Position numbers and translations under genes: made by a program
Assembly (NCBI GenBank): GCA_964373045.1
Contig: CAYJSI010000008.1
Span: 1-63,527, forward strand
DNA: 63,527 bases
Reading direction: 5' to 3'
DNA from: an uncultured bacterium
GTDB taxonomy: Bacteria; Omnitrophota; Omnitrophia; Omnitrophales; Aquincolibacteriaceae
The notes under the pieces: generated by a model
What the model was told of the DNA's origin: nothing
Databases searched by the model: none
What the model saw: the letters and a program-made list of their open reading frames with translations, nothing else
Part shown: piece after piece, positions 44,681 through 58,104 of the stretch
Layout of the letters: every line of letters starts with the position of its first letter
Position numbering within the stretch: the stretch's first letter is position 1

Positions 44681-45710
44681 GTTCCCCCGCAATGGCTTCA
44701 GCCGCCGCCTCGTGGCCGAAACGATTCCAATGGTCATCAATTCGAAAGTACGGCAATTTCCCTGTCTTGAGCCAAAATTCCTTCAAGGGACCTGCTAAAT
44801 TCAAAAAATCGATTTCATAGTCAAGGCAATATTGACGCAAGCGCTCAACTTCCGGCTTCACTGCTTCACCACGCCTTTCAAGCCAATCGCCTTTAATCGG
44901 AAAATAGACGAGGACTAACCTCGTCCGCCCTCGCGTGATTTCCCGCAGCTGATCGAGTACTCCCGTGTCCAAGCTGGGAAGGCTCGAATCATCTTGCGCC
45001 ATCAAATTTTTTGAAAATTCCTTACGGCGATGGAAATTTTCCAGGGTGAAGTGAATTCCTCGCTCTAGAACGGTATAGACATAAGAGACGCGGTAAAGAG
45101 AAAAACGAATTTTTTCCTTCCACGAATAGGTGTCCGGTGATTTTGGCCAGTACATCCGTCCCCTTTTCCAATAAACCTTACGGTCGATATCCGGGGTCGG
45201 CCATTCTGACAAAAAAAATAATATGATGTCGGGTTGATATTTCATGCCGTCTTGCTCCAGGCGGGCCATCTGCTGGTAGGGCGAATAACCCGAAACACCC
45301 GTATTGAGCACCTCGGCGCCTTGAAGCCACTTATTTTCAAGAAGCTCCGTCACAGTTTGATCAATTTGAACACCCCATCCAAAGATGTGAGAATCGCCCA
45401 GCGCCAGAATCCTTTTTACGCCGGAAGGCTTTTCGATCGAATAATCACGATCCCTTAAATGGTCTCGATTAATCCGAACGCGTGTAATAAATTCCCGGTT
45501 CCAAAAAATTTGCTCCGCACCGTCCCTGGGAACATAAAGAATCCGTGGATCTTCATGCGGCTCAGAGCAGGTCTGCTGAATAATATTTCGATTATTAAAA
45601 TAGAGCCAATGAGGCGGATTCCATCTTAAGTAAATTTCGCCCATCAGAAGACCTGAGGCGAGAGAAACCAAGAAGGTCAAAAAAGGGCGGCTACTAAGAG
45701 CCCGGAACAC
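44661..45710 (-). CDS. SGNH/GDSL hydrolase family protein with N-terminal membrane anchor
   Basis: RILALGDSHIFGWGV block I. The track ORF runs to 45920, which would overlap the upstream gene by 227 nt. GTG 45710 gives a 17-nt overlap and a TM segment at the N-terminus. Confidence 0.75.
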   Translation of the reverse strand: MFRALSSRPFLTFLVSLASGLLMGEIYLRWNPPHWLYFNNRNIIQQTCSEPHEDPRILYVPRDGAEQIFWNREFITRVRINRDHLRDRDYSIEKPSGVKRILALGDSHIFGWGVQIDQTVTELLENKWLQGAEVLNTGVSGYSPYQQMARLEQDGMKYQPDIILFFLSEWPTPDIDRKVYWKRGRMYWPKSPDTYSWKEKIRFSLYRVSYVYTVLERGIHFTLENFHRRKEFSKNLMAQDDSSLPSLDTGVLDQLREITRGRTRLVLVYFPIKGDWLERRGEAVKPEVERLRQYCLDYEIDFLNLAGPLKEFWLKTGKLPYFRIDDHWNRFGHEAAAEAIAGELKKWGF

Positions 45711-47733
45711 GATGCCGCTCCTTTTTATATTTGAATCCTTCCTGAGCCGTGAGGCGCATGCCACTCGGCAGGGCTGAAATCCAGTACTGCCCCCTGGTGG
45801 GATCTTCAAAATGAATGTCAAAAACCCTTGCCCCCACTCCCCAAGCAAGGTCGGGATAGGCCGCTTCGGGAAAATCTTTAAACCGCTCTTGCTGGAAACC
45901 TTGAGGCGGCCACCCTTCAAACAAAAAGCTCGAATAAACGTAACCCATCCCCCGGAAAACCCACTGTTTTTGTTTTTCTTCCAGGGAGATCACTTGTTGA
46001 ATCGCTTGATCGCAGCGCGTCTCAACGCATGGGGCAGCCAGTAAATTGCCACGGTGAAACAGATAGGCGGGGATTGAGGCAATATTGCCTGAATCGCGAA
46101 GCGCTCGTTGGATGTCAGAGAGATTGCTTCCCTCCGCCGCATAAAAAGCCAACCCATTTTCAAAGAATTTCATTTCATTCTCAGTGAATCCCTCTGAAAG
46201 AAACTTTTTAATTTTCTCGCCCTTCTCCCTCGCCAAACACTCAAGATAATAGGGGCGATAAGATGGCGTTGCGATGTCCAAAAGTTTAAAAAGGTCTCTC
46301 TCTCCCATCTCCTCCCGTCCGCAAAGACTGTTGAAGAGGCCGTGCTCGAAGAAAAATCGGTCTTGAGGAGAGAGACGATTCACGATCTGGTGATATTTCA
46401 ACGAATCCCTTGTATCAAAATATCGGAAAAGGGTCTCAGACCACAGCATTCCAAGTTGGGCATAGGAGTAACCTTTAAATTTCAAACCGATTCCCACAGG
46501 ATCTTTGAACAGAAATTGCGACGAGCCCAGGATCCCGAACAAAAGCAAAATGATGAAGCAAAATCTTTTTTTGAGAAGGTGAACACCCGAAGCTGCAAAA
46601 ATAATTCCAAAAAAATAAAGGGGGACAAAATAGCGGCTGTCAAGGTAGTGCCCGTAAATGGGAAAAGAACCGATAAAGTTGCTGGCCGTTCCCAACAGCC
46701 AAAAAACAACGGGAAAGACGTAAAAAAAAACATAACGTTTCTTCTCAGGGCTCCCCTGGAGCGTTCCTCCCCGATACATCCCACGAACCAGATAGACAAT
46801 GATTCCGTAGTAAACGTATGCGCCGACCCAGCTGAGCCCCTTCGAGTAAGGAAAGAAATGAAAGGAGGCGGGAAGAGAGATAAGCGGAAAATCAATCGCC
46901 CTCCGAACTATTCTTAAAAACTTGCTCAGAATGAAGCGGGGCGTGAAATCATCCGGGGCAAAGGCCCTTAAAAGAAAAAGCGCCGATTCTCCCCCACAGA
47001 AAATATTGTAGAGAAGATAGGGTAAAAGCCCGACAAAGAAGGCGGTAAGGAAAATAAAAAATTCGCGGCGCCAAAAAGACTTCCCTTGAATCAACCCCCC
47101 GCATAAAAGAAGGCTTAACGTTGTAAGACCCGTAATATTCACAAACCAGAACCCGAAACCGCTCACAACCCCGGAAAAGACAAGGAACAGGTTTTCCCTG
47201 GGACGCCCCGTTTTGGGGAAAAAATAGGCGTAAAAAAAATAAAGACTCAAAAGGCTAAAGAGAAGGGACTCGCTGTGAAAACCCATGGCCAAGTGAGTCA
47301 GGTAAGTCAAAGAGGGCGGCGGAAATGTAAAAAGGAGGCTCGCCATCCACGCCACTTGAAAACCAAGAAAACGCTTCGCGAAAAAATAAAGGAGAACGAG
47401 CGTCGCGGTCGAGAATAAAAGGGGCGTTAATTTAAGAACGAATAGGCTTTCCCCAACGTGTCGAAAAAAGAAACTTACGACCCAGGCCACTGCCAACGAG
47501 CCTCCCGAGTAGTAATCCGCTTGATAATCCCATAGGGGCGCTTTTAATCCCTGGACGATCTCCTTTGCAATCACCCCCCGATAAAGCTCCTCTGAGAATT
47601 GAACCGTTTCGATGGCCGTTAAAAGAGTGACAAGATGGTATCCTCCATAAAGCAGGACAAGGCAAAGGGGAACGACAAGGGTTCGGGTAAACGAAAAATT
47701 TTTTGCAGGTGTAAATATGGAAGTTGAAGCCAT
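45694..47733 (-). CDS. GT-C fold membrane glycosyltransferase (ArnT/PMT_2-like) with C-terminal soluble domain
   Basis: 679 aa. The N-terminal ~420 aa are polytopic with an ArnT/PMT-like first loop (..YYSGGSLAVAW..LKLTPLLFSTATLVLLYFFAKRF). Confidence 0.7.
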   Translation of the reverse strand: MASTSIFTPAKNFSFTRTLVVPLCLVLLYGGYHLVTLLTAIETVQFSEELYRGVIAKEIVQGLKAPLWDYQADYYSGGSLAVAWVVSFFFRHVGESLFVLKLTPLLFSTATLVLLYFFAKRFLGFQVAWMASLLFTFPPPSLTYLTHLAMGFHSESLLFSLLSLYFFYAYFFPKTGRPRENLFLVFSGVVSGFGFWFVNITGLTTLSLLLCGGLIQGKSFWRREFFIFLTAFFVGLLPYLLYNIFCGGESALFLLRAFAPDDFTPRFILSKFLRIVRRAIDFPLISLPASFHFFPYSKGLSWVGAYVYYGIIVYLVRGMYRGGTLQGSPEKKRYVFFYVFPVVFWLLGTASNFIGSFPIYGHYLDSRYFVPLYFFGIIFAASGVHLLKKRFCFIILLLFGILGSSQFLFKDPVGIGLKFKGYSYAQLGMLWSETLFRYFDTRDSLKYHQIVNRLSPQDRFFFEHGLFNSLCGREEMGERDLFKLLDIATPSYRPYYLECLAREKGEKIKKFLSEGFTENEMKFFENGLAFYAAEGSNLSDIQRALRDSGNIASIPAYLFHRGNLLAAPCVETRCDQAIQQVISLEEKQKQWVFRGMGYVYSSFLFEGWPPQGFQQERFKDFPEAAYPDLAWGVGARVFDIHFEDPTRGQYWISALPSGMRLTAQEGFKYKKERHRVPGS

Positions 47734-47752
47734 ACGCAGAATTCGATATAAT
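47724..47752 (+). promoter_or_regulatory. Candidate sigma70-type promoter of the RiPP-like operon (TTGAAG-17-TATAAT)
   Basis: -35 at 47724-47729 and -10 at 47747-47752, which is only 9 nt before ATG 47762. The -35 lies inside the divergent GT-C gene's first codons. Confidence 0.35.
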
Positions 47753-47761
47753 TTACCTGCT

Positions 47762-48052
47762 ATGTTCGACAGTGTCTATGCAAAAAATAGGGATTACGTT
47801 TACCGCGAAGTCGCGGGCGAATATCTCCTCATCCCCATCCGCCAAAAATTGAACGAGGCCAACAAACTTTACGTCTTGAACAAAACGGGCTCGGAGGTCT
47901 GGAATCGCCTTGATGGCAAACGCCCTTTAAGTTCCATTGTCTCCGAACTTGGAGAAATGTTCGAGGTCAGCTCCGAAACACTTCAGCAGGACATCCAGAC
48001 ACTCCTTCAAGACCTGCTCAGCATCCAAGCCGCGCAAGAAACCGCGTCGTGA
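47762..48052 (+). CDS. PqqD-family protein (RiPP recognition element) no. 1
   Basis: YREVAGEYLLIPI..YVLNKTGSEVWNRLDGKRPLSSIVSELGEMFEVSSETLQQDIQTLLQDL. The track ORF starts at 47717. Confidence 0.85.
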   Translation: MFDSVYAKNRDYVYREVAGEYLLIPIRQKLNEANKLYVLNKTGSEVWNRLDGKRPLSSIVSELGEMFEVSSETLQQDIQTLLQDLLSIQAAQETAS

Positions 48053-49608
48053 TCGTCACCGGCAACTTCCAGAAGGAGTTTACCGAGGTTCATCCCGGCA
48101 TCTTTGTCATGGAAAATCATGACGGGGCCCACCACGTCTGGAAGCAAAGAGGATGCCGCGACAAGATCCTTTTGCATTTTGATGCCCACATTGATTTTTC
48201 GTGGATCACGCCTTCCGTCGGTGAACTCCTTCTTTCGGACTCCATCCAGGATTTTGAGTCCCAACTGAATCAGTCACGCCTCTGGAGCTGGACGGACCAA
48301 TCAGCCGAGGATCGAACCCACCTAGGCAATTACATCTATCAGGGGCTCAAGGGCGATATCGTTAAAGAATTTATTTGGATCTATCCGGATGCCCCGTCGC
48401 CTGATCGCCAGGCCCGAGCCGTGGAGCGGATCTTAAGGAATACGGGCGCCATTATGCCCGAATTCTTTAAAGTCAAAGAGGGTGAAGAGGCCGGTTGCTT
48501 CGAGGGCTTCATTTTAAATAAACCCTTTAAGGCTCTCCCCTTTTCAAAGCTCAATACTATTTCCGGTTTTGAAGAATCCATTCTTTTGAATGTCGATACC
48601 GATTTTTTTGTCATCCAAGAATTGTATTCTCGTTCTTATCCCTACCGCAATTTTGACAAGGATCTTCGAGGCTGGCTCTCCCCCCAGGGACTCCTCGACC
48701 AAATCAAGTCTCGGGAGATTGTCTCCGATTGTCTGACCTTGGCCTTTTCTGTCGAGGAGGGTTATACACCTATCTCCCTGAAGTTCTTAGGGGAAGAGTT
48801 CTGGAAAAGATTTGCCGACACCCTCCACCTTGAGGAAGAAAAGGCATTTGACGGCTTGAAGGAATCTTTCTCTCTGCCTCCTCAAGATGCGCGGCGTCTG
48901 CTGAACGGGCTCATTCAAGATACCCCTGAGCGGGCTGACCTCCATTTTAATCTAGCGGTTCATTTAGCAGCGATGAGCGATATCACAGAGGCGAGAACGC
49001 ATTACTGGAAAGCAGTTGAACGCGATGAGAGCTACCGGAGCGCTTACAACCATGAGGGCCGCGCCCTGTATTTTTGCGAAAGAAAAAAGGAAGCGGATGT
49101 CTCCTTCTCCCAAATAAAAGCGGTGGACCCTGAGCATCCTGATGCCCTCTTTTACGACATCGAGCGGGCTGCCGAAAAAAAAATATGGGGTGAGGTCTTA
49201 AAAAGAGTGGAGGAGGCACGCCATCAGGGACTTCAAGATTCCCGCGTCGCCTTAATGAGAGGGGAGGCCCTTGACGCCACAGGCCGATGGCAGGAGGCCT
49301 GTGCTAGTATCAAAAATTTTGACTCCACAGAAGAGGGGCTTGGATTTTTCCGCATCCGATTCCTCACCCTCAAGGCACGCCTCGCCGAGAGAGGAAATGA
49401 AATCGATGAGGCGATCGATGCCTGGCGCGAGATCATCAATCTTCGGGTCCTTTTGACGGAGGCCCATCTTCGGCTCTTCTTTCTTTACTTTAAAAAAGGG
49501 AACCTCTATCAAATGAAAAGAAATTTCATGAAAGGTTTACGCTTTTCCTTTTTTGAATGCTTCAGGCCGCTTATCCGATGGAGTGCTAAGCAAAAGACTT
49601 ACCTATGA
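48049..49608 (+). CDS. UPF0489-like (arginase/deacetylase-fold-like) domain plus TPR repeat protein
   Basis: VMENHDGAHHVW..ILLHFDAHIDF and LLNVDTDFFV resemble UPF0489. The C-terminal ~230 aa are TPR-like. The GTG start overlaps the pqqD1 stop (GTGA). Confidence 0.6.
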   Translation: MIVTGNFQKEFTEVHPGIFVMENHDGAHHVWKQRGCRDKILLHFDAHIDFSWITPSVGELLLSDSIQDFESQLNQSRLWSWTDQSAEDRTHLGNYIYQGLKGDIVKEFIWIYPDAPSPDRQARAVERILRNTGAIMPEFFKVKEGEEAGCFEGFILNKPFKALPFSKLNTISGFEESILLNVDTDFFVIQELYSRSYPYRNFDKDLRGWLSPQGLLDQIKSREIVSDCLTLAFSVEEGYTPISLKFLGEEFWKRFADTLHLEEEKAFDGLKESFSLPPQDARRLLNGLIQDTPERADLHFNLAVHLAAMSDITEARTHYWKAVERDESYRSAYNHEGRALYFCERKKEADVSFSQIKAVDPEHPDALFYDIERAAEKKIWGEVLKRVEEARHQGLQDSRVALMRGEALDATGRWQEACASIKNFDSTEEGLGFFRIRFLTLKARLAERGNEIDEAIDAWREIINLRVLLTEAHLRLFFLYFKKGNLYQMKRNFMKGLRFSFFECFRPLIRWSAKQKTYL

Positions 49609-49901
49609 TCGCGTTCGGCTCCACAAAACTTCAAGGCGTTTACCAAGCCGTCGGCTCCGCTCAATGGAAGGAGATGGAAGGACAGGCCGTCATCCTCGAC
49701 CCTCGAAATTCGCAGGTGGTGCGGCTCAATGAGCTGGGCGCTCGGATCTGGAAACAAATCAACGGGATAAATACGCTAGAGGAAATTGCCGCCAGTCTTG
49801 AAAAGGAATATAATGTGCCGAGAAGGAAAGCCGAAAAAGACACGCTTGACTTTGTTTGTAAACTTTTTGAACGGGAATTAATCGTTAAAAAACATGATTG
49901 A
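49605..49901 (+). CDS. PqqD-family protein (RiPP recognition element) no. 2
   Basis: QAVILDPRNSQVVRLNELGARIWKQINGINTLEEIAASLEKEYNV..DTLDFVCKLFEREL; ATGA overlap with the upstream gene. Confidence 0.85.
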   Translation: MIAFGSTKLQGVYQAVGSAQWKEMEGQAVILDPRNSQVVRLNELGARIWKQINGINTLEEIAASLEKEYNVPRRKAEKDTLDFVCKLFERELIVKKHD

Positions 49902-50805
49902 ATCTTATTCTCTTTCCCGCCTCCCTGATCGTTACCCCATTCATGGCCAGTGGGAGATCACCTGCCGCTGCAATCTCAAATGCGTGATGTGCTATACGGA
50001 TTGTTTTAATACCCCCGAAAAAATCCGCCAGGAATTATCCACGGCTGAAATCAAGGCAATCATGGATGATATTGCCGCCGAAGGCTGTGTTGAACTATGC
50101 CTGACAGGGGGCGAACCGCTGGCCAGACCTGATTTTCGAGAAATCTACGCTTATGCCAAAGAAAAGGGGTTCCTCATTACCTTATTTACAAACGGAACTC
50201 TCATCGATAACGCTATGGCAGATTTTTTCGCGTCGCTCCAACCGCGCGTCATTGAAATTTCACTCCATAGCCTGACCCCCAAGACCTTTGAAACCATCAC
50301 GGCCGGGAAGGGATCGTTTGATAAATGCATGGAAGGCATCCGGCGGCTCATGGAACGAAGGCTGCCGCTTGTCCTTAAAATGGTCGCCCTGACCTTGAAT
50401 CAGGATGACGTTATTGCCGTCAAGCGATTCACGGACCAATTTCCCTCGGTTCGTTTTAAGCTTGGGGAAGACCTTCGACCTACACTCGATGGAAATCAAA
50501 CCCCTGGACAATATCAGCTAAGCGAAGAAGCGCTTCGCCGGATTAAAGAACAGGATAGGGATATTTATCTTGATTCGTGTCAGGATGAAAGCGAGAAACC
50601 CTTCCACGCCTGCCACGAAGGCAAAAAGAGTTTTCATATCGATGCCTACGGCAGCCTTCAGCTTTGTTCCGGCAATCGGCGTCAAAGTTACGATTTAAGA
50701 AAGGGCTCTTTCCGGGAAGGCTTTTACGAATTCCTGCCCCATTTCCCTTGCCCGGCCAAAAAAATTCTTACCGGCGCCGAAAGTTCATACGAGGGACCAT
50801 GCTAG
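49894..50805 (+). CDS. Radical SAM enzyme no. 1 (truncated SPASM/twitch-like C-terminus)
   Basis: CNLKCVMCY (CxxxCxxC), LTGGEPLARPDF, and C-terminal CHEGKKSFHIDAYGSLQLC. Confidence 0.9.
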   Translation: MIESYSLSRLPDRYPIHGQWEITCRCNLKCVMCYTDCFNTPEKIRQELSTAEIKAIMDDIAAEGCVELCLTGGEPLARPDFREIYAYAKEKGFLITLFTNGTLIDNAMADFFASLQPRVIEISLHSLTPKTFETITAGKGSFDKCMEGIRRLMERRLPLVLKMVALTLNQDDVIAVKRFTDQFPSVRFKLGEDLRPTLDGNQTPGQYQLSEEALRRIKEQDRDIYLDSCQDESEKPFHACHEGKKSFHIDAYGSLQLCSGNRRQSYDLRKGSFREGFYEFLPHFPCPAKKILTGAESSYEGPC

Positions 50806-51968
50806 AGCTGAGACCCCTCCCTCGAATTCCCTACGCAGCACTGAGTGAGAAAATTTATGACCGTTCGCATGACGCCGGACAAGTCACGCGCGTGCAAATG
50901 GAATTGACCAATCGCTGCAATCTCCACTGTCTTCATTGCTACACCGATCCTCTAAACAAACCGAACTATTTTTCCAAAGAAATGACTACGACGGAGGTGA
51001 AAAACATTCTGGATCAGATAGCCGATCACGGCATCCTCTGGGTCAATTTTACGGGCGGCGAGTGCCTCGCCCGTGCGGATTTCTTTGATATTTATGACTA
51101 TGCGTCCCAGAAAGGATTTATTTTAAGCATTTTTTCAAATGGCACGACCTTAAATGAAAAAACCGTGTTGCGATTTAAAAAAAATCCACCATTTTTTATT
51201 GAGATTTCGGTGCATTCAGTCCATGCAAAGGCCTTTGACGCCTTCACCCAAGTTCCCGGATCCTTTCAGAAATTCCTTAAGGGACTCCATCTTCTCAGAG
51301 AACATCAAATCCCCTTTCGCCTCAAGACCAAGGCTATGAATTGGAACCAGCAGGAGATTCCGGAGATCCGCCGTTTTGTGGAATCTTATGGTTTAAAATT
51401 TAGCTACACCACAAACCTTTACCCCCGCCTGGATGGAGACTTGGGTCCCACCCGGATGAGGCTTTCGCCGGCGGAGATCAAGACCCTCGATAACGAGCAG
51501 AAGACTTGGCGGGATGACGAAGAATCCTGTCAGCTCATAAGTGAATGGATTGGACCGCCAGAGTCTGATAAAGTGTACCGCTGTGCATGTGCGACGAACA
51601 CGATCCACATTAACGCGTGGGGAGAACTCGGCACGTGTACGTTTGAATACGAGAAAAGAGTCTCATTGCGAAAAGTCCCCTTGAGTGAGGCGATCGATCA
51701 AGTTTTTTCATATGTCCGATCTTTGAGTTTCGAGAAAGAAACGCCCTGCCGGCGCTGCGAGGTCCATGCCTTTTGCGAACGAAGCGCCACGTCCTTTCAG
51801 AGGGAAACGGGCGACCGCGAAAATCCGGTACCCCATTTCTGCGATGTGGCTTATGATCGGGCCGTTCGCTTTGCGGGAGAAAAAGTTCTTCATCCCTTAA
51901 CCCATCAAGCCAAAGGAGCCGACGATGAATACCGCCAAGAAAACCTACGTATCTCCAAAACTCTTTGA
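50799..51968 (+). CDS. Radical SAM/SPASM enzyme no. 2
   Basis: CNLHCLHCY, FTGGECLARADF, and SPASM cysteines CACATNTIHINAWGELGTC...CRRCEVHAFC. The likely start is ATG 50799 (7-nt overlap). The track ORF starts at 50664. Confidence 0.9.
   Translation: MLELRPLPRIPYAALSEKIYDRSHDAGQVTRVQMELTNRCNLHCLHCYTDPLNKPNYFSKEMTTTEVKNILDQIADHGILWVNFTGGECLARADFFDIYDYASQKGFILSIFSNGTTLNEKTVLRFKKNPPFFIEISVHSVHAKAFDAFTQVPGSFQKFLKGLHLLREHQIPFRLKTKAMNWNQQEIPEIRRFVESYGLKFSYTTNLYPRLDGDLGPTRMRLSPAEIKTLDNEQKTWRDDEESCQLISEWIGPPESDKVYRCACATNTIHINAWGELGTCTFEYEKRVSLRKVPLSEAIDQVFSYVRSLSFEKETPCRRCEVHAFCERSATSFQRETGDRENPVPHFCDVAYDRAVRFAGEKVLHPLTHQAKGADDEYRQENLRISKTL
51914..51918 (+). promoter_or_regulatory. Shine-Dalgarno (AGGAG) for the precursor ORF
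   Basis: caaAGGAGccgacgATG, with a 6-nt spacer. It lies inside the 3' end of rSAM no. 2. Confidence 0.6.
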
Positions 51969-52113
51969 AGTCGAACTGAACCCGACTCAAGCCATTCTCA
52001 CGACCTGCAACAACACCTCCACCACCCTTTCAACGAACAGCACCAGACGCCGTTGCGTTGGGACCTGCCGTCGAAGCGGCGCCGGCGGTCAGGACAATAC
52101 AACTGTTTCATAG
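51925..52113 (+). CDS. Candidate RiPP precursor peptide (62 aa)
   Basis: MNTAKKTYVSPKLFEVELNPTQAILTTCNNTSTTLSTNSTRRRCVGTCRRSGAGGQDNTTVS. It has its own SD sequence and a YxxPxL leader-like motif. The C-terminal part is rich in Cys, Ser, Thr, Asn and Arg. It sits between rSAM no. 2 and the kinase. Confidence 0.7.
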   Translation: MNTAKKTYVSPKLFEVELNPTQAILTTCNNTSTTLSTNSTRRRCVGTCRRSGAGGQDNTTVS

Positions 52114-52122
52114 CCATCCTGC

Positions 52123-53034
52123 ATGTTCTCGACATCGTTAAATATCGGCGGCTACACTCTGCGTGTAGCAGAAAAGAAAGATTTTCCCCTCCTTTCCTGG
52201 CCGAATCCTTTCTTCGAACCCTTTGCGGGGGATCCGGATTCCGCACCGGATATCGATCTGGAGATAGAGGTCACAGAGCGTCTCCCTTCAATTCAAAAAG
52301 GCTCCCCGCTCTTTGACGCCTGTGAAGGTCATTGGAAACTTTGGGAATACGATTCAAAGAATTTTTTCGTTGAGACATCTAGTCCCAAAACTAAAAAGTG
52401 TTTTACCTGCGGTTTTCTCACAAAAGACTTTCGGAAGGCCTCCCTTTGGACGCTGGTGGACTATTTAGATAAAGACAAAACGAAGCCGGGTTGGAGCCCC
52501 TCCAAGGTCCTTAACCCTGTCGGAGAAATTTGTTTGGTCACTCGGCTCGCGCGGGAGGGAGGATTTCTGCTCCACGGCGCGGGGATCGAGGTTGAAGGCG
52601 AAGGGTGGATTTTTACGGGGCCCTCAGAGGCAGGCAAATCCACCCTCTCCAAATTTTTCTTTGATCAAGGCTACACCGTCTATACCGACGAGAAAACGAT
52701 TGTGCGGCGGTTAGAAGGTATTCCCGTTGTCATGGGAAGCCCCTGGCCGGGCGAGGGTTATTATCTCCACAACGGTCAAATCCCTCTTTCACGTCTTCAT
52801 TTTATCCGCCATGGAAAAAATGCCCACGAAATTAAAAAACTTTCTCCTGCCCTGGCGGCCACCCAGTTGATTCAATTATGCTTTCTCCCTTATTGGGATC
52901 GAGAAGCCATGGATCAGACCTTGGCCTTTATCCGGGAACTGGTTCAGGCAATCGATTGCTTCGAGCTTGCCCCTCTTAAAACCCCGGACGTGGTCAACTA
53001 TTTAAAACATTTTCATGCCGGTGTGTTGGCTTAA
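52123..53034 (+). CDS. HPr kinase/phosphorylase C-terminal-domain-like kinase
   Basis: LLHGAGIEVEGEGWIFTGPSEAGKSTLS (P-loop in HprK-like context); 303 aa. Confidence 0.75.
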   Translation: MFSTSLNIGGYTLRVAEKKDFPLLSWPNPFFEPFAGDPDSAPDIDLEIEVTERLPSIQKGSPLFDACEGHWKLWEYDSKNFFVETSSPKTKKCFTCGFLTKDFRKASLWTLVDYLDKDKTKPGWSPSKVLNPVGEICLVTRLAREGGFLLHGAGIEVEGEGWIFTGPSEAGKSTLSKFFFDQGYTVYTDEKTIVRRLEGIPVVMGSPWPGEGYYLHNGQIPLSRLHFIRHGKNAHEIKKLSPALAATQLIQLCFLPYWDREAMDQTLAFIRELVQAIDCFELAPLKTPDVVNYLKHFHAGVLA

Positions 53035-53039
53035 CGGAA

Positions 53040-54098
53040 ATGGAGACCCTGCGAGAAGTTTATTTATTTGATCGCCTCGTAGACCAGTCTACCGATTCTC
53101 ACATTCCATCCAACGTCACCTTTGAGCTCACTTACGGCTGTAACTTTGCTTGCGTTCACTGCTTGAATCCCACGCATCAGGCAGGTGTTCGGGAATTAAA
53201 AACCGCTGAAGTTTGCCGTATCCTTGACGAGGTCCGGGGTCTCGGTGTTTTCTTGATTAATTTCACGGGCGGTGAACTTCTCACACGACCCGATCTGTGG
53301 ACGATTTTAGACCACGCCGGGGAGATCGGACTCGTCTTTTCCTTATTTTCAAATGCCTCTCTTCTCACGGAAGACATCCTGAAAAGGTTGTGCACCTACC
53401 CCCTCGTTCACTTCATGACTTCGATTTATGGGGCGCAAGAGGAAACCTACGAGCAGATGACGCAAAGGCCCGGTTCCTTTTCAAAATTTTGCGGGGGGTT
53501 GGAACTTCTCCGGCAATTTTCCAAAATGAGAACGGTCGTCAGAATGCCAGTCACGCGGCTGAACCAACATGAAATTAAGGAAGCGGAGACCCTCGTCCAT
53601 TCTTACGGATTTCGTTTCCAATACTCTCTTGAAATTCATCCCCGCCAGGATCAGAACCCCGCTCCGCTCGAGTATCGGCTTTCGCCGGAAGAAAAATTTG
53701 AAATCATGAAGCAATTCAGCGAAGGATTTTCTCGCGAGACGGAGGAGGCGGCTTGCGCCCGCCAGCCGGAGAATGAAAAGTTCATCGATTGCGCCTGCGG
53801 AAAAAGTCAGTTTGCAATTACCCCTTTCGGAGAAATGAACCTTTGCACGGGTTTTCCTATGCCTCGGTATGATTTGAGGATGGGAAGTATCCAGGAGGGA
53901 TGGGAGGTTCTTAAAAAAATCGTCCGCGAAGCGAGGGGGAATGAACGTTACGAATGTCCGACTTGTTCACTGAAACCTTTTTGCCGCCAGGGAAGGAATG
54001 ACGCTTGGCTTGAAACGGGCGACCCAAGCCCGTGCCTCCCCCATTTTAAGGAGCTGGCCCGCTTAGAAAGTGAAAGCTACTCAAGAAGCGCTCGTTGA
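53040..54098 (+). CDS. Radical SAM/SPASM enzyme no. 3
   Basis: CNFACVHCL, FTGGELLTRPDL, and SPASM CACGKSQFAITPFGEMNLC...CPTCSLKPFC. Confidence 0.9.
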   Translation: METLREVYLFDRLVDQSTDSHIPSNVTFELTYGCNFACVHCLNPTHQAGVRELKTAEVCRILDEVRGLGVFLINFTGGELLTRPDLWTILDHAGEIGLVFSLFSNASLLTEDILKRLCTYPLVHFMTSIYGAQEETYEQMTQRPGSFSKFCGGLELLRQFSKMRTVVRMPVTRLNQHEIKEAETLVHSYGFRFQYSLEIHPRQDQNPAPLEYRLSPEEKFEIMKQFSEGFSRETEEAACARQPENEKFIDCACGKSQFAITPFGEMNLCTGFPMPRYDLRMGSIQEGWEVLKKIVREARGNERYECPTCSLKPFCRQGRNDAWLETGDPSPCLPHFKELARLESESYSRSAR

Positions 54099-55014
54099 CC
54101 AAGTCATTCGAGCCTACTCCCACGTAAGCCTCAATAACCACCGGATCTTTGAGCGCTTTAAGGTGGTCCTGTCAGCCCTTGAAGAGGCCGGGATCCCCTG
54201 TATGCCGCTCAAAGGGGCGGATCTCCTTTTTCGTCTCTACGGCGTCATGGGCAGCCGCCCCATGTATGACGTCGATCTGTTAATCCGCCCCGGGAATCTT
54301 GAGCGAACCGATCAAATTTTAAGAACGCTCGGTTTTTCCCAAGTCCAGGACGGCAACCCCTCCTATCACGACAGGGATAATGTCCTGGCACTCGACATCG
54401 TCACCGATCTTTGGTATCTCGAAAATACCGAAGCCCTTTGGGAGCGATCGCAAATCAAAAAGGTTCTTGGCTCGACCATGAATTTTATGGCGGCGGAGGA
54501 TCTCTTCCTTTATCTCTCAGCTTACAATGTTATCCATCGCGGTTTTTTAACAGCTGCCTTTGAGAAGGATCTTCTTCTCCTCCTTGAACATGAAACCTTG
54601 GATTGGGATGAAATCCTTCAAAAAAGCCAGCGTTGCCGATTAAAACCCGCTTTACTTTTAATCTATGAAAAGAATCCTCTTTTGCGGCATCGTTGGCCGA
54701 GCCGCTTTGCCTCACAGCTTAAACCTCAAACCTTAAGCGAACTTTTGATCTTCCTTTTTTTAAAAACATTTGTCACCAAAAAGGAGCTGCCGGGCCTCGG
54801 CCATCTCCTTCTCTGGCTCACGGCGCCGAGGCGTTCACAGCTCCGCTGGCTTCAAGCGAAGTTTTTTCCCTCAAATTTTTTTTTGCGGTATCGTTATCCC
54901 AAGGAGTATCAATATCCAAAATTCCTGATCCTGTCAAAACGTTTTTTTTATCTCCTTTATCGATCTCTTAAACTTTCCCTTTTCCTTATCTTGCGATTTT
55001 TTCAGTTAAAATGA
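54070..55014 (+). CDS. Nucleotidyltransferase family protein (PF14907/NTP_transf_5-like)
   Basis: GIPCMPLKGADLLFRLYGVMGSRPMYDVDLLIRPGNLERTDQILRTLGF; GTG start; 29-nt overlap with rSAM no. 3. Confidence 0.75.
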   Translation: MKATQEALVDQVIRAYSHVSLNNHRIFERFKVVLSALEEAGIPCMPLKGADLLFRLYGVMGSRPMYDVDLLIRPGNLERTDQILRTLGFSQVQDGNPSYHDRDNVLALDIVTDLWYLENTEALWERSQIKKVLGSTMNFMAAEDLFLYLSAYNVIHRGFLTAAFEKDLLLLLEHETLDWDEILQKSQRCRLKPALLLIYEKNPLLRHRWPSRFASQLKPQTLSELLIFLFLKTFVTKKELPGLGHLLLWLTAPRRSQLRWLQAKFFPSNFFLRYRYPKEYQYPKFLILSKRFFYLLYRSLKLSLFLILRFFQLK

Positions 55015-55772
55015 GTCTCCGTTCCCACTTGGCCCAAGGCGTCTTAAAAACGGCGCAAACCCTTCCGAGTTTAATCCCCGCCTTTTTAAAACCGCAGGAA
55101 CTGATGGCTCTGAATGAGACCTACTATCAAGAAAAAAAGGAAGGCGCCTTAGAATCATTTCAGCCCGAACTTTATGAGGATGAGAAGCGATTGCTTTCTT
55201 ATCTCCCGGCAAGGAGCCGGATTCTTTGTTTGGGGGCGGGACTTGGGAGGGAGGCCCTCGCCCTTGCCGAGCTAGGTTATGAGACCTGGGGAATTGAAAA
55301 TGTCCCGGAACTCGCTTCCTTTGCAAAAACCTATGCCGAGACGCACCATCTGTCTGCCCGTTTCATTCTGGCGAATGTCCTGGACCTCCCGGATCTCAAG
55401 GTAAGTTTTGACTGCGCCCTGCTCCTCAATTGTTTTTATAATCTCATTCCGGGAAGGCGGCTCCGACAGCGCCTCCTTTCCAGTGTTAAAAGAAGCCTTG
55501 TCCCGCAAGGGATTTGCATCCTTCAACTAACCTTGAGACCGACCTCCGAACGGGAAAAAAAATGGCATCGCCTTTTAAAGTCTTTAGCCCAAGTCCTTGG
55601 GAATCCAGAGTATGAGATGGGAGACCGTATGGTCGATGCGGGTCTTTACTACCATTTCTTTTCTTCTTTTGAACAGGCGTGGGGCGAAATCAAAGAGGCT
55701 GGTTTTAATCTGAAGGAGCGCTTATCCCTCGATGGATTTTATACCACGCTCATCCTTCAATCTCATGATTGA
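55011..55772 (+). CDS. Class I SAM-dependent methyltransferase
   Basis: Motif I RILCLGAGLGREALALAELGYETWGIE; ATGA overlap with the upstream gene. Confidence 0.85.
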   Translation: MSLRSHLAQGVLKTAQTLPSLIPAFLKPQELMALNETYYQEKKEGALESFQPELYEDEKRLLSYLPARSRILCLGAGLGREALALAELGYETWGIENVPELASFAKTYAETHHLSARFILANVLDLPDLKVSFDCALLLNCFYNLIPGRRLRQRLLSSVKRSLVPQGICILQLTLRPTSEREKKWHRLLKSLAQVLGNPEYEMGDRMVDAGLYYHFFSSFEQAWGEIKEAGFNLKERLSLDGFYTTLILQSHD

Positions 55773-56544
55773 AACGCTCGAGCTCCAGCACCTGCCTTTA
55801 CGGAAGCTTCTGAACAAGTCTGGCACCGTAACGATCCGCTCAAACGGCTGGAGCATGTTTCCTGCAATCTTAAAAGGAGACCTTTTAACAATCATTCCAA
55901 AGACCCGCCCGGAGGTGGGCGATCTGGTCGTTTTCGAGCAAAACGGCCAATGGATCTGCCACCGCCTCATCCGGATCGAAAAGGACGTTTACCGCACCCG
56001 GGGGGACAATACCACCCGACCCGATACCCCCATCAAAGAGGATAATGTTTTGGGCATTGTGTCCGAAATATTGCGCCGAGGAAACCCTATTTCTCCCGAG
56101 TCGCCCTTACCCGAGCGTTGGCACGATCGGGGATGGATGTTGCTTGACCGTTCAAGCCTTTTTGCCCATCTCCTCTTTAACAAGATTCTCAAATGGCTCT
56201 TGGACTTTATCCTTGCATTTTCCTTGGGACGGCAGGTTTTAGGCCAAATACTTGGCTCGTTTAACAAGCTTAAAATTGCTTTTCCCTCCCCCTTGGAATC
56301 CCTGCGGACCTCTCGATCGTTGTCGCTAGGATCTTTCACTAAGCCACGCCTCGGCCAAATACCACTTTCTTTTAAAAGGGAAGCGGGCTGGATTCTAAGT
56401 GCCCATTTTTTGGGTTTTATTTTTGCGCGCTACCTTTACCCTGCCGGTCAGTTTGAATTCCGGTTTCAAAAAGGGTTTGAGCCGCTTGAATTGCGCTTTC
56501 GAAAAATGGTCCAGGAAATCCTTGATGTCACTGCCTCCGATTGA
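55765..56544 (+). CDS. S26B (archaeal/SipW-type) signal-peptidase-like serine peptidase with ~140-aa C-terminal extension
   Basis: IRSNGWSMFPAILKGDLLTI..GDLVVFEQNGQWICHRLI..YRTRGDNTTRPD. The likely start is ATG 55765. Confidence 0.75.
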   Translation: MIETLELQHLPLRKLLNKSGTVTIRSNGWSMFPAILKGDLLTIIPKTRPEVGDLVVFEQNGQWICHRLIRIEKDVYRTRGDNTTRPDTPIKEDNVLGIVSEILRRGNPISPESPLPERWHDRGWMLLDRSSLFAHLLFNKILKWLLDFILAFSLGRQVLGQILGSFNKLKIAFPSPLESLRTSRSLSLGSFTKPRLGQIPLSFKREAGWILSAHFLGFIFARYLYPAGQFEFRFQKGFEPLELRFRKMVQEILDVTASD

Positions 56545-57295
56545 TGTTCAAAATTTAAGCAAAACGTTCGACCATTCTCCGGTCTCTTTGTTTTCCCGCA
56601 CTCGCATAAAAACGACGGCGCTGGATCGAATTCATCTTCAAATTCCGGAGGGGGAGATTTTCGTCCTCTTAGGTCCGAACGGCGCGGGAAAATCCACTTT
56701 TCTAAAAATCCTCACGGGCCTTATCAGCCCCGATGCGGGGAGTGTTCAGATTTACGGAAGGTCTCACCGCGAAAAAAAATCGGTTCAAAATTTATCTCTT
56801 CTGATCAATGACGAAAGGAGTTTTTATTTTCGCCTGTCTGCGAGGCAAAATCTAGAATTCTTTGCCGCGCTTTACGGCTTCTCGGACCGTGAGAAAAAGG
56901 CGCGGATTGAATTTCTTCAAAAAAGATTTGCCTTGGATTATCTGGATCTTCCCTATCAGGAATGCTCGGTCGGGATGAAGCAGCGTCTTGCCCTGGCGCG
57001 TTGCTTCCTGAAAAATTCAAAAATCCTGCTCATGGATGAGCCGACGCGAAGCCTTGACCCTCACGCCAGAAGAAATTATTGCCAATGGGTTCGAGATCTC
57101 AAAAGTCAACACAACGCCACCATCCTCTTTACCACCCACGATCTTGAAGAGGCTGAGCTTTTGGCAGACCGCGTGGGCATCCTCTGTGAGGGAAGACTCC
57201 TAGCGGTGGGAACGATGGACGACTTACGAAAAAAAATTAAAAATACGGAGGCTTCTTTGAGGGATATCTATTTCGCGCTGGAGCCATCGCGATGA
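56525..57295 (+). CDS. ABC transporter ATP-binding protein
   Basis: Walker A LLGPNGAGKSTFL, signature-like SVGMKQRLALA, Walker B LLMDEPT. The likely start is ATG 56525. Confidence 0.92.
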   Translation: MSLPPIDVQNLSKTFDHSPVSLFSRTRIKTTALDRIHLQIPEGEIFVLLGPNGAGKSTFLKILTGLISPDAGSVQIYGRSHREKKSVQNLSLLINDERSFYFRLSARQNLEFFAALYGFSDREKKARIEFLQKRFALDYLDLPYQECSVGMKQRLALARCFLKNSKILLMDEPTRSLDPHARRNYCQWVRDLKSQHNATILFTTHDLEEAELLADRVGILCEGRLLAVGTMDDLRKKIKNTEASLRDIYFALEPSR

Positions 57296-58104
57296 TATTT
57301 TTTCGAAAACTTTTGGCTATTTTTAAACGCGACTGCCTTGAGCATTTAAGCTATCGGCAATCCCTTTTTCTTGACATAGCCTCAATCGCGGCTAGTCTGA
57401 TCACCTTTTATTTTATTGGGAAATTAGTCGGCAGCTCGGCCCTTCGCTCTTTGGTCTCTTTTAATGGGGCCGATTATTTTCCCTTTGTCCTCCTAGGTCT
57501 TGCCCTTTCAAGCTTTCAGACGCTGGCCCTGAGTGGTCCTTCGGAGGCTTTGTTGAAGGAGCAATCCTACGGAACCTTGGAGGCCGTTATGATGACCTCA
57601 ACCGGTTTTGAGACCCTCCTCTCGGCGGGCTTCCTTTGGCCGCTCATTTTCTCCACCCTGAGGGTCACGGCTTATTTTATCGCGGGCTTTTTTCTCGGCG
57701 CCTCTTTCCCTTTAAGCCAACTCCCTCTATTTTGTCTCATTGTATTTTTAAGCATCCTTTCGCTGCTAGGACTGGGATTGTTTTCAGCCGGCTATTCCCT
57801 TGCCTACAAACGCGGGAACCCTGTTCAGTTTTTTTTTGAGCCCCTCTCGAAATTAACGGCGGGTGTTTATTTTCCGGTTGCTCTCTTCCCTTTATGGCTC
57901 CAGCCCTTTACGTATCTCAATCCTTTTACCCATGCCCTCGAAGCAACCCGCTTAGTCCTTCTCTCGAATGCCACCCTTCCCCAAATTATGCCTCACCTCA
58001 CGGCCCTTGCCTTGTTTGCTTCGTTTTTGATTCCGCTTGGGATATTTTCCTTCCATTTTTATCTCAACAAGGCAAAGAAAGACGGCTCTCTTGCATTTTG
58101 TTGA
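57292..58104 (+). CDS. ABC-2 type transporter permease
   Basis: 270 aa with about 6 TM segments; ATGA overlap with the ATPase gene. Confidence 0.85.
   Translation: MIFFRKLLAIFKRDCLEHLSYRQSLFLDIASIAASLITFYFIGKLVGSSALRSLVSFNGADYFPFVLLGLALSSFQTLALSGPSEALLKEQSYGTLEAVMMTSTGFETLLSAGFLWPLIFSTLRVTAYFIAGFFLGASFPLSQLPLFCLIVFLSILSLLGLGLFSAGYSLAYKRGNPVQFFFEPLSKLTAGVYFPVALFPLWLQPFTYLNPFTHALEATRLVLLSNATLPQIMPHLTALALFASFLIPLGIFSFHFYLNKAKKDGSLAFC

Follow-up and report, generated by a model that had tools for sequence, protein, structure and literature searches.

A predicted RiPP biosynthetic operon with three radical SAM enzymes, an HprK-like kinase and a putative peptide arginase

To our knowledge, the SynChlorMet (ScmC/ScmD/ScmE/ScmF; TIGR04248-04251), GeoRSP (TIGR04302/3) and HprK-related kinase A/B systems are bioinformatically defined and uncharacterised. 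They combine PqqD, radical SAM (rSAM)/SPASM and HprK-like P-loop proteins, and the same combination is found in the 13-gene operon described here, which occupies positions 47717-58104 of the window (the whole stretch of DNA analysed, 63,527 nucleotides). An earlier note on this DNA had named the TIGRFAM HprK-rel-A and GeoRSP systems. These are, together with SynChlorMet, the nearest named relatives, but the cut-offs are missed by wide margins: the operon proteins score 20.8 bits for ScmC (cut-off 125), 32 for ScmD (100), at most 83 for ScmE/F (400), at most 72 for the GeoRSP rSAM (400) and 26 for HprK_rel_A (200). No operon protein reached the NCBIfam equivalog cut-offs of the SynChlorMet, GeoRSP, HprK-rel-A, lasso or mycofactocin families. 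In contrast to the named systems, the family in the window has three rSAMs, an NTP_transf_5 protein, an S24-type peptidase and an identified precursor.

The operon also resembles the paeninodin and pseudomycoidin lasso peptide clusters, which likewise contain an HPr-kinase homologue, an 'uncharacterised nucleotidyltransferase' and a stand-alone PqqD RRE. In lasso pathways, the C-terminal Ser of the linear precursor is phosphorylated by HPr-kinase homologues, and the nucleotidyltransferase attaches hexoses to the resulting phosphate (PMC8498205, PMC7533575). One lasso kinase requires the B1 RRE, and a non-terminal Ser can also be the target, as Ser3 is for BsfK (PMC10368454). The precursor described here shares with phosphorylated lasso peptides a leader YxxPxL, a Ser or Thr two residues before the presumed core and a terminal Ser, although the Tyr stands 20 residues from the presumed core here and 17 in lasso precursors. 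As the earlier note had stated, no Asn-synthase-like lasso cyclase or transglutaminase-like B2 protease is found among the scanned ORFs of the whole window; the operon has three rSAMs and an S26B-type peptidase instead. The two PqqD proteins score 32-46 bits against lasso_PqqD_Bac (cut-off 80), and the kinase falls in the ScmC family, not in Pfam Hpr_kinase_C.

Sactipeptide and ranthipeptide maturation (SkfB, AlbA, PapB, CteB) has in common with the operon RRE/PqqD domains, SPASM/twitch rSAMs and a Cys-containing precursor. The PapB, AlbA and TIGR04133 models align full-length to the window rSAMs, but at only ~60 bits for PapB (cut-off 340) and 77 bits for AlbA (850). The RRE in the window is a separate protein, whereas that of the known maturases is an N-terminal fusion, and there are three paralogous maturases, with putative thioethers and with kinase, nucleotidyltransferase and arginase tailoring in addition. 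We found no paper in the searchable literature that describes this system or architecture; the earlier note had not recognised the combination as a described RiPP class.

Operon organization and the precursor peptide

The 13 genes, g1 to g13, run head-to-tail on the plus strand, and all ORFs and their overlapping or near-abutting junctions agree with the earlier description. Four junctions (g1/g2, g2/g3, g9/g10 and g12/g13) are 4-nt overlaps, GTGA or ATGA. The other overlaps are 8 nt (g3/g4), 7 nt (g4/g5, with ATG 50799 and its Shine-Dalgarno site taken as the g5 start), 44 nt (g5/g6), 29 nt (g8/g9), 41 nt (g10/g11) and 20 nt (g11/g12, with ATG 56525 taken as the g12 start). The pairs g6/g7 and g7/g8 are separated by gaps of 9 nt and 5 nt, respectively. 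The operon had been called the only plus-strand block in the region. This holds for the surrounding ORFs of at least 150 aa that are not nested in a longer minus-strand ORF, with the exception of one weak VanZ-like ORF at 44141-44680.

The precursor gene g6 (51925..52113) encodes 62 aa and has a ribosome-binding site, AAGGAG, 6 nt upstream of its start. The leader comprises approximately residues 1-27 (KKTYVSPKLFEVELNPTQAILTT), and the core, from C28 to the C-terminal Ser62, contains three conserved Cys, Cys28, Cys44 and Cys48, with the motif C48-R49-R50. All 54 intact precursors have the leader KKxYxxPxLFxVxLxxxQAIL, which includes the lasso-like YxxPxL, and all 54 end in Ser. Their Cys count is always odd (3, 5 or 7), and in 51 of them the tail reads DSGxRxS or nearly so, with Arg at -3. 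The core varies in length and sequence and is Ser/Thr-rich, and both tandem and orphan precursor copies occur within genomes. In a distant ScmC cassette (L006), the leader is similar, yet the last residue of the peptide is Gly. Judging from this conservation, the 62-aa ORF, which the earlier note had proposed as a candidate, is a genuine conserved precursor. The conserved precursor, its YxxPxL leader and its C-terminal Ser also bear out the earlier view that the operon is RiPP-like, with rSAM/SPASM and PqqD proteins at its base and lasso-type accessory genes.

A scan of species-representative genomes placed precursor homologues at 53 loci, mostly in Nitrospira/Nitrospiraceae. The window itself appears to come from an Omnitrophota host, not from Nitrospira. 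At 47 of these, cassette genes adjoin the precursor in a conserved order: PqqD, rSAM(twitch), rSAM(SPASM), precursor, ScmC/HprK-like kinase, rSAM(SPASM) and NTP_transf_5, usually followed by an S24/S26B peptidase. The same order is seen in independent neighbourhoods, and at least 47 genomes, mainly Nitrospira, share a core of seven to eight genes, so that the gene set, whose co-occurrence elsewhere the earlier note had wished to see surveyed, is not unique to the window.

Maturation and tailoring enzymes

Among the family assignments made earlier, profile searches recovered PqqD (twice), Radical_SAM (three times), NTP_transf_5, the methyltransferase, Peptidase_S24, ABC_tran and ABC2_membrane, but not Pfam SPASM, Hpr_kinase_C or, for the window protein, UPF0489. 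Both PqqD-family RRE proteins, no. 1 (g1, 47717..48052; 54.8 bits) and no. 2 (g3, 49605..49901; 68.0 bits), exceed the Pfam PqqD gathering score of 23.4 bits. The called start of g1 overlaps a divergent minus-strand gene by 17 nt, and an alternative ATG at 47762 would remove the overlap. PqqD no. 1 is 49-52% identical to the PqqD directly preceding the first rSAM in three related loci (L001, L003, L009), and no. 2 is present only in loci with a g2 homologue (L012, L013, L032). By these homologies, the chaperone conserved in the cassette is PqqD no. 1 rather than no. 2.

The three rSAM enzymes are g4 (49894..50805; Radical_SAM 90.5 bits), g5 (50799..51968, in an ORF opening at 50664; 73.0 bits) and g8 (53040..54098; 68.7 bits). 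All three retain CX3CX2C and conserved auxiliary-cluster Cys: C26/C30/C33 with invariant C229, C240, C258 and C286 in g4; C40/C44/C47 with eight invariant C-terminal Cys, including CX2CX5C, in g5; and C34/C38/C41 with seven invariant C-terminal Cys in g8. The Pfam SPASM model gave no match to these proteins at E<=0.01. The conserved Cys pattern assigns SPASM-type 7-8-Cys domains to g5 and g8, as earlier proposed, and one C-terminal twitch-like domain to g4, which had been taken for a plain rSAM. The nearest solved structure for g4 (E=3e-15) and for g5 (E=2.6e-9) is that of the thioether synthase SkfB (6EFN for g4). The best NCBIfam matches of the rSAMs (heme/NirJ, mycofactocin, MoaA) cover only the rSAM core and fall far below the cut-offs. 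Since one set of three rSAM genes serves precursors with 3, 5 or 7 Cys, a simple logic of one enzyme per Cys does not apply.

The kinase gene g7 (52123..53034) carries a precomputed assignment to Pfam PF27840 (ScmC) and had been called HprK-like. Pfam Hpr_kinase_C gave no match, but the AF2 model (pLDDT 93.8) has PEPCK and HprK/P as its top Foldseek matches (E 2e-6 to 3e-4), and there is a remote sequence match to HprK in the PDB (E ~1e-3). The Walker A motif GxSxxGKST is invariant, as are H151 and D189, and the only named families matched are SynChlorMet ScmC, GeoRSP and HprK-related systems. The confident fold match and the remote homology support the prediction of an HprK-like kinase, a P-loop protein of HprK/PEPCK fold. 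The nucleotidyltransferase g9 (54070..55014) matches PF14907 (NTP_transf_5) with 96 bits, and its catalytic residues G58, G61, R63, P64, D67 and D69 show at least 93% conservation across 49 orthologues.

The earlier description of g2 (48049..49608) as UPF0489-like plus TPR stands for the TPR repeats (Pfam matches at 279-341) and, at family level, for PF12640, which matches six of six family members (best E=1.6e-7); the window protein alone stays below threshold (E=0.01, 16.6 bits against 27) and scores ~18 bits for NF052474 (cut-off 350). The profile of the N-domain (approximately residues 1-255) has the OspR peptide arginase, 8BRP, as its top PDB match (E=2.9e-4), and all five g2 homologues found carry a UPF0489-like N-domain. 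A fold search with the full-length model was dominated by matches to the TPR part. The three motifs and six Mn ligands described for peptide arginases (PMC10028609) are conserved in the family, as EEH(N/H)EAF, DXHXD and LDIDLDYFSC and as invariant H24, D45, H47, D49, D183 and D185. The family thus resembles the peptide arginases OspR (of landornamide) and FlmR/OhkR (PF12640), but g2 is fused to a TPR domain of ~260 aa, is paired with its own PqqD RRE and has an rSAM cassette as its context, unlike the proteusin pathways and the orphan families of PMC12703449. The window protein has Asn23, and its homologues Asp, in place of the proposed guanidinium-stabilising Glu11 of OspR. These data support, at family level, the prediction that g2 combines a divergent peptide arginase with TPR repeats in one fusion protein.

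Homologues of g2 lie in this same rSAM cassette in both contigs looked up (L012, L013), and the scan of related loci added L032. By this distribution, g2 and PqqD no. 2 are an accessory module, found at four loci, and appear as a peptide-arginase insertion in the cassette. In the rSAM tree, the arginase-bearing loci are split over at least two positions. In all three arginase loci with a readable precursor (the whole sample for this covariation), the residue beside a conserved Cys is Arg (C-R) and the tail Arg is absent, whereas C-K and the tail Arg occur in every one of the remaining precursors, 40 of them arginase-negative and 11 of unknown status or orphan. The replacement of C-K by C-R and the loss of the tail Arg in arginase loci lead us to predict a conversion of Arg to ornithine.

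The remaining genes encode a class I SAM-dependent methyltransferase (g10, 55011..55772; Methyltransf_11/25), an S24/S26B-type Ser/His peptidase (g11, 55732..56544; Peptidase_S24 42.8 bits), a DrrA-like ABC transporter ATPase (g12, 56525..57295, in an ORF opening at 56399; ABC_tran 104 bits) and an ABC-2 type permease (g13, 57292..58104; ABC2_membrane 47.9 bits). Homologues of g10 at 27-34% identity in about half of the related loci mark it as an accessory gene. The peptidase scores 46.8 bits for TIGR02228 (cut-off 51.85), has a C-terminal extension of ~150 aa and conserves the catalytic residues S41-M42 and C76-H77-R78 to at least 93% in 41 orthologues; it is a candidate leader peptidase. The ATPase scores 196.6 bits for TIGR01188, below cut-off, and its homologues adjoin the cassette in L012/L021 and L031.

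Proposed pathway and alternative explanations

We think it likely that the operon is a RiPP biosynthetic gene cluster, in which a stepwise pathway, whose chemistry we infer, would cross-link the 62-residue peptide, modify its tail and lead to an exported product. PqqD no. 1 would bind the leader and present the peptide to the paralogous rSAMs g4, g5 and g8, which would introduce cross-links at Cys, most likely thioethers of the sactionine or ranthionine type; this type is a guess from family resemblance. The phosphate from the kinase step could be elaborated by g9 with a hexose or nucleotide, as by PsmN for pseudomycoidin. The predicted arginase module would hydrolyse Arg49, and perhaps Arg residues nearby, to ornithine, thereby recreating the primary amine given by the invariant Lys in arginase-less relatives. 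The methyltransferase would add a methyl group somewhere on the peptide, the peptidase would cut off the leader near QAIL(S/T)x|C, and the ABC-2 transporter might export the product or protect the producer.

Instead of simply decorating the C-terminal Ser, the kinase and nucleotidyltransferase might activate Ser/Thr or the C-terminus of a RiPP for elimination or ligation and so give a cyclase-independent macrocycle, for example by addition of Cys or Lys/Orn to dehydroalanine or by an adenylation-driven macrolactam with the Lys/Orn amine. It is well established that class II-IV lanthipeptide synthetases form dehydroamino acids by phosphorylation and subsequent elimination. Two invariant features lack another evident function, namely the primary-amine residue beside a Cys (C-K, or C-R with arginase) and the terminal Ser, and they covary with the presence of arginase; Ser and Thr are abundant in the core, and no other cyclase is encoded. 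However, a C-terminal dehydroalanine would be chemically labile, the domain searches revealed no lyase, lanthionine cyclase or ATP-grasp domain, and the sole experimental precedents for the enzyme pair are phosphorylation and phosphoglycosylation, which leaves this alternative unlikely.

We give rather less credence to a peptide-derived redox cofactor, comparable to PQQ or mycofactocin, in place of a secreted natural product. The PqqD chaperone and the rSAM/SPASM enzymes would modify the conserved tail, which would next be trimmed and decorated, in the way that MftC, MftE and MftF act on the C-terminal Val-Tyr of MftA. The best NCBIfam match of g8 is MftC (100.9 bits), with PqqE also scoring, conservation is far higher in the C-terminal heptapeptide DSGxRxS and at the last residue than in the mid-core, and most related loci with gene tables examined show no transporter directly adjoining the cassette. 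These scores, however, fall well short of the equivalog thresholds (265 for MftC, 381 for PqqE), partner dehydrogenase genes are absent, and the window, L012 and L031 have a dedicated ABC-2 exporter. A variable core, 3, 5 or 7 Cys and tandem and orphan copies are typical of diversifying natural products, not of cofactors. An anti-phage defence or nucleotide-modifying system of viperin-like rSAMs with kinase and nucleotidyltransferase, rather than a natural-product pathway, seems highly improbable. PADLOC viperin (pVip) models do match g4, g5 and g8 (E 1e-13 to 2e-19), and PADLOC has a model for 'viperins associated with kinases', but the matches span only the generic rSAM core (approximately the first 150 of 257 profile positions), the NCBIfam prokaryotic viperin scores are 54-58 bits (cut-off 180), and PADLOC gave no match for the kinase, nucleotidyltransferase, either PqqD, arginase or peptidase. 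The SPASM/twitch domains, the pair of RRE proteins and the Cys-rich precursor conserved alongside them are features characteristic of RiPPs.

The RiPP cluster that we favour would thus belong to an unstudied family known mainly from nitrite-oxidising Nitrospira, to which the operon in the window adds a predicted enzyme for the conversion of Arg to ornithine.

The operon and its precursor family

Thirteen consecutive ORFs (g1 to g13) occupy 47717-58104 on the plus strand of the window. They are separated by gaps of 5-9 nt or overlap by 4 nt (GTGA or ATGA), 7-8 nt or 20-44 nt, in agreement with the head-to-tail, overlapping or near-abutting operon described in the earlier note. These figures assume the most plausible starts for g5 (ATG 50799) and g12 (ATG 56525), both of which have Shine-Dalgarno-like sequences upstream. 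Profile searches upheld the domain list in the same note, including two PqqD proteins (g1 and g3), three radical SAM enzymes (g4, g5 and g8, or rSAM1, rSAM2 and rSAM3), an NTP_transf_5 nucleotidyltransferase (g9), a class I methyltransferase (g10), a Peptidase_S24/S26B-type protein (g11), an ABC ATPase (g12) and an ABC-2 permease (g13). Scans for promoters and terminators returned counts at the shuffled expectation (10 vs 8.7; 23 vs 19.1), and no RNA family in Rfam matched anywhere in the window. Of the sigma-70-like matches around the operon, which overall are no more frequent than chance predicts, the best is TTGAAG-17-TATAAT (10/12) at 47724-47752 (+). It lies just upstream of an alternative g1 start at 47762, so that a transcript from it would be nearly leaderless.

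Small ORFs from related cassettes align with g6 (51925-52113), and a scan pattern built from this alignment was searched against one genome per species. It found 53 loci, the majority in Nitrospira, Nitrospiraceae or Nitrospirota, with a few in Rokubacteria, Elusimicrobia and a 'Cytophagia' MAG. The peptides share the leader consensus KKxYxxPxL(F/Y)xVxLxxxQAIL, followed by (S/T)-x-C, a variable stretch with many Ser, Thr, Gly and Asn residues, and then further Cys. Fifty-four of the 59 peptides are intact, and every intact one ends in Ser. A DSGxRxS-type tail, with Arg at -3, is present in 51 of the 54, and 52 of the 54, read off the sequences, have S/T two residues ahead of the first Cys. We conclude from these alignments that the 62-aa product of g6 is a real precursor. 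A search for a further precursor gene in the window found none.

The number of Cys after the leader is always odd (loci L014-L066 and the window peptide), with three in 33 of the intact peptides, five in 15 and seven in 6, despite a constant set of three rSAM genes. Precursor genes occur as adjacent tandem pairs of differing length classes in L016, L017, L051 and L053, and as intact orphans distant from any cassette in L014, L015, L022 and L055. Truncated or frameshifted copies are found in L026 (at 9206), L034, L063 and L065, and the MAG s7_161 has three precursor loci in one genome. In an Anaerolineales MAG (L006), a distant PqqD-rSAM-ScmC cassette contains a 53-aa ORF at 9427-9588 whose leader (KKQAYQKPELRKVRLD) is similar and which also has three Cys, yet its C-terminal residue is Gly instead of Ser. 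This type of leader therefore reaches beyond the precursor family of the window and the 53 loci.

The neighborhood is conserved with the precursor. tblastn with the window proteins placed cassette genes next to the precursor in 47 of the 53 loci; the other six are orphan or decayed copies. Independent contigs share the order PqqD, rSAM (303 aa), rSAM (about 380 aa), small ORF (62-81 aa), ScmC-like kinase (g7 in the window), rSAM (about 352 aa) and NTP_transf_5. The S24-type peptidase usually comes next, except in L001, where it lies ahead of PqqD; a methyltransferase is often found in front. Homologues of g7 are 38-46% identical, are named 'hypothetical protein' and come in several cases from Nitrospira MAGs. 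A scan of the species genomes with g7 alone found no relatives, and an alignment-based g7 scan latched onto the generic Walker-A pattern and recovered two distant loci only; it was the precursor alignment that succeeded. The ScmC-like family runs to 1,892 clusters at 50% identity (E<=1e-30), a very large number, and in L148, a member that was sampled, this type of precursor goes with a permuted gene order; 53 loci is therefore a lower bound. The operon belongs to a conserved and apparently uncharacterised family.

Several related loci carry additional genes. In four loci of Nitrospira type, an ECF sigma factor and an RskA-type anti-sigma factor lie directly 3' of the cassette (L003 13807-15428; L009 13814-15432; L010 13510-15128; L011 9572-11193), and a conserved trio without Pfam matches precedes it, encoding a 105-aa TPR protein, a 66-aa ORF and a 365-aa protein. 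In L009, L010 and L011 there are also an NRPS gene and the gene for its phosphopantetheinyl transferase nearby. A small GIY-YIG-like ORF (YYVYILSNQPNGTLYIGVTNDLLRRIYEH...) at 12736-13000 of L012, between rSAM1 and rSAM2, looks like a mobile nuclease gene inside the operon of the relative with the closest architecture.

The window itself is chromosomal; among its genes are a dcw cell-wall cluster, those for glycine cleavage and uvrD. At the protein level its GcvPA shares 72% identity with the counterpart in MAGs without a name and 67% with the one in Candidatus Omnitrophota MAGs. The cassette proteins are 35-59% identical to their counterparts, which are mostly from Nitrospirota. The operon has a G+C content of 0.48-0.50, slightly below the roughly 0.51-0.54 of the 2-kb bins that flank it. 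The operon had been described as the only plus-strand block of the region, and in a survey of ORFs not nested inside a minus-strand gene the other long ORFs were all on the minus strand, except one weak VanZ-like ORF at 44141-44680 (+), which scores 23.9 bits, below cut-off. L012 likewise has a weak VanZ-like ORF near its cassette, at 19787-20308. The operon's position as a lone plus-strand island of slightly reduced G+C within polysaccharide genes would fit horizontal acquisition.

The minus-strand flanks of the operon (44661-47733 and 58209-63507) encode a PMT_2-like glycosyltransferase, a GDSL esterase, a methyltransferase, a formyltransferase and GT4 and GT9 glycosyltransferases. These are genes of envelope and polysaccharide type, and such genes border related cassettes too (Wzz/Poly_export in L013, GT2 in L001); the proximity may be a coincidence or a functional link. 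At the left end of the window, a minus-strand frame (1-10731) stays free of stops for over 3,577 codons and runs off the end, in a stretch of lower G+C (0.44-0.48); no Pfam model matched it at E<=1e-4, and its product is a giant protein.

Conserved motifs of the core enzymes

The three rSAM proteins have the hallmarks of sacti- and ranthipeptide maturation. In alignments of six orthologues per enzyme, each has CX3CX2C, followed by four invariant C-terminal Cys in rSAM1, eight in rSAM2 (CX2CX5C among them) and seven in rSAM3. PqqD is present as well, and all precursors have at least three conserved Cys. The four C-terminal Cys of rSAM1 point to one auxiliary cluster, as in twitch-like enzymes. 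The Pfam SPASM model had no match at E<=0.01 in any of the three proteins, and the closest solved structure to rSAM1 and rSAM2 is the thioether-forming SkfB. We rejected the idea that each Cys has its own rSAM enzyme, because the same three genes serve precursors with three, five or seven Cys. By BLAST, g1 and not g3 is the orthologue of the PqqD protein conserved in all loci.

The product of g7 has a Walker A motif, GxSxxGKST, in which G166, S168, G169, G171, K172, S173 and T174 are invariant or nearly so, as are H151 and D189. Its profile matches the HprK C-terminal domain in the PDB (E=1.1e-3), and the top Foldseek matches to its AF2 model (pLDDT 93.8) are ATP-dependent PEPCK and HprK/P, with probability 1.00. 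It combines the P-loop (GxSGxGKS), the catalytic His and Asp and the fold of the HprK/PEPCK group, and is a P-loop kinase of this fold in the Pfam ScmC family. In g9, the nucleotidyltransferase signature G-x2-G-x-R-P-x2-D-x-D is kept across 49 orthologues. In g11, Ser41-Met42 and His77 are kept across 41 orthologues and are the predicted Ser/His dyad of S26B (archaeal/SipW-type) signal peptidases; g11 scores 42.8 with Pfam Peptidase_S24 (gathering cut-off 23.3) and 46.8 with TIGR02228, just short of 51.85.

The accessory module with a putative arginase

The pair g2 and g3 is missing from most loci. The window, L012 (the same contig as L021), L013 and L032 have it, in each case between PqqD no. 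1 and rSAM1. Among 5.8 billion proteins, the search found only five homologues of the g2 N-domain; all five have the N-domain and at least four have TPR-family domains, and P0037 and P0038, the two for which the contig was inspected, are both within the cassette. A full-length g2 profile searched against the PDB was swamped by TPR matches, and the N-domain was excised for the profile instead. The top PDB match of the N-domain family is the peptide arginase OspR (8BRP; E=2.9e-4). PF12640 matches all six members of the g2 family at E<=10 (best E=1.6e-7) and is in the precomputed Pfam list for two of the five homologues. The window protein is under the family cut-offs for PF12640 (E=0.01; 16.6 vs 27 bits) and for NF052474 (18.2 vs 350).

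We know of no earlier peptide arginase that combines a fusion to TPR repeats with a dedicated RRE. Peptide arginases are defined by the motifs EEH(N/H)EAF, DXHXD and LDIDLDYFSC, which in OspR contain the Mn ligands H12, D39, H41, D43, D165 and D167 (PMC10028609). The g2 counterparts are MENHDGA, HFDAHID and LLNVDTDFF; H24, D45, H47, D49, D183 and D185 are invariant in the six sequences and align to the OspR motifs. In the window protein, Asn23 occupies the position of Glu11 of OspR. The g2 N-domain appears to be arginase-like.

The precursors covary with this module. All precursors from 40 arginase-negative loci, and the 11 precursors of unknown or orphan status, have a Cys-Lys motif. Three loci with the arginase have a precursor that can be read, and in all three the motif is Cys-Arg instead (window, TCRRS; L021, VCRRS; L032, ACRNS); only these three precursors lack the tail Arg. 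In the rSAM tree, the L032 enzymes are closest to those of the arginase-less loci L027 and L001 (distance 0.19) and far from those of the window and L021 (0.45), so the switch between Cys-Lys and Cys-Arg occurred at least twice. The simplest reading of this covariation, seen in three precursors, is that conversion of Arg to ornithine would supply the primary amine given elsewhere by Lys.

Relation to named systems and a proposed pathway

The operon resembles a hybrid of sacti- or ranthipeptide maturation, the tailoring set of phosphorylated lasso peptides and a landornamide-type arginase. A lasso peptide cluster is excluded because the cyclase and B2 are both absent. As the earlier note had stated, there was no Asn_synthase or transglutaminase-like match in the 13 genes or the other scanned ORFs of the window; the sole peptidase is the S24/S26B-type protein. 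In lasso leaders, YxxPxL at positions -17 to -12 is the element bound by B1, the RRE (PMC10368454); the window family has the same element, but with the Tyr at -20 rather than -17. Lasso leaders are also marked by a Thr at -2, to be compared with the S/T ahead of the first Cys in the window family. NF033536 scores 32.5 and 46.4 bits on the two PqqD proteins (cut-off 80).

Equivalog models of the other named families tested (SynChlorMet, GeoRSP, HprK-rel-A/B, mycofactocin, PQQ, PapB, AlbA and SkfB) all missed by large margins. The scores, given over their cut-offs, are 20.8/125 (TIGR04249), 28.6 and 32.1/100 (TIGR04248), <=82.6/400 (TIGR04250) and <=69.1/400 (TIGR04251) for SynChlorMet, and 29.4 and 23.1/100 (TIGR04302) and 60.3, 71.6 and 57.9/400 (TIGR04303) for GeoRSP. 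Unlike the SynChlorMet equivalogs, the broader Pfam model PF27840 (ScmC) does match g7. The earlier note had likened the gene set to HPr-rel-A and GeoRSP. The only NCBIfam models that g7 matches are HprK-related (HprK_rel_A, HprK_rel_B and ScmC), all of them far under cut-off: TIGR04352 gives 26.4 bits and TIGR04355 22.5 bits on g7 (cut-off 200), and each of the 25 members of the g7 family gives a weak match to both, again under cut-off (best E 4.8e-9 and 3.3e-12). Nor did any of ten proteins sampled from the wider ScmC-like family reach an NCBIfam cut-off. To our knowledge, SynChlorMet and GeoRSP are catalogued without a characterised product. A full-text literature search, with most subscription journals outside its range, returned no paper on this architecture; open-access surveys of Nitrospira gene clusters list generic 'RiPP' clusters only.

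The operon is very probably a real, intact RiPP-type cluster. From the precursor family, the conserved neighborhood, the catalytic motifs and the covariation, which the analysis establishes, we infer each step of the following pathway. PqqD no. 1 would bind YxxPxL in the leader and bring the three rSAM enzymes to the peptide, where they would form Cys-based cross-links. HPr-kinase homologues phosphorylate the C-terminal Ser of linear lasso precursors (PMC8498205), and at least one of them needs the RRE (PMC10368454); similarly, g7 would phosphorylate the invariant C-terminal Ser. In pseudomycoidin, PsmN adds hexoses to the phosphate (PMC8498205, PMC7533575), and g9 may elaborate the Ser phosphate in the same manner. 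Ornithine would be generated by the arginase, which has a dedicated RRE and a TPR domain, and g10 would methylate the product. The S26B-like peptidase would remove the leader, probably immediately before the first Cys, and the ABC-2 transporter would export the product. We consider this mechanism likely as a whole, and are less confident of the cross-link chemistry than of the rest.

Other readings are that the genes make a cofactor, that they activate a peptide for elimination or ligation, or that they form a defence system. Of the cofactor systems, the mycofactocin protein MftC (TIGR03962) scored at most 100.9/265, PqqE (TIGR02109) at most 74.3/381 and PqqD (TIGR03859) 35.7 and 38.5/46. PADLOC reports a similarity to viperins, but it is restricted to the generic rSAM core, and we rejected the defence reading. 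An unlikely extension of the RiPP pathway is that the operon would be the founding example of a large class of unexplored chemistry, recognised by a ScmC-type kinase, a nucleotidyltransferase, three rSAM enzymes and a lasso-like leader on the precursor. Phosphorylation or nucleotidylation would activate the invariant C-terminal Ser, and the invariant Lys amine would be linked either to this Ser or to a cross-link derived from Cys; in a few lineages a dedicated, RRE-guided arginase would make an ornithine in situ to provide the amine. If so, the product would have a constrained topology made without any lasso cyclase and would possibly be a signal or weapon of Nitrospira.

The analysis adds a precursor family to a set of HprK-like/PqqD/rSAM cassettes; among named systems, SynChlorMet and GeoRSP are the closest to them. 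For RiPP enzymology, the operon offers three co-operating rSAM paralogues and a pair of kinase and nucleotidyltransferase outside the lasso peptides. The arginase module is rare and informative, and yields a sharp and cheap prediction: ornithine in place of the invariant lysine. Nitrospira are the main nitrite oxidisers of soils, waters and wastewater plants, and a conserved, multi-copy peptide pathway in these bacteria could serve in signalling or competition within nitrifying communities.
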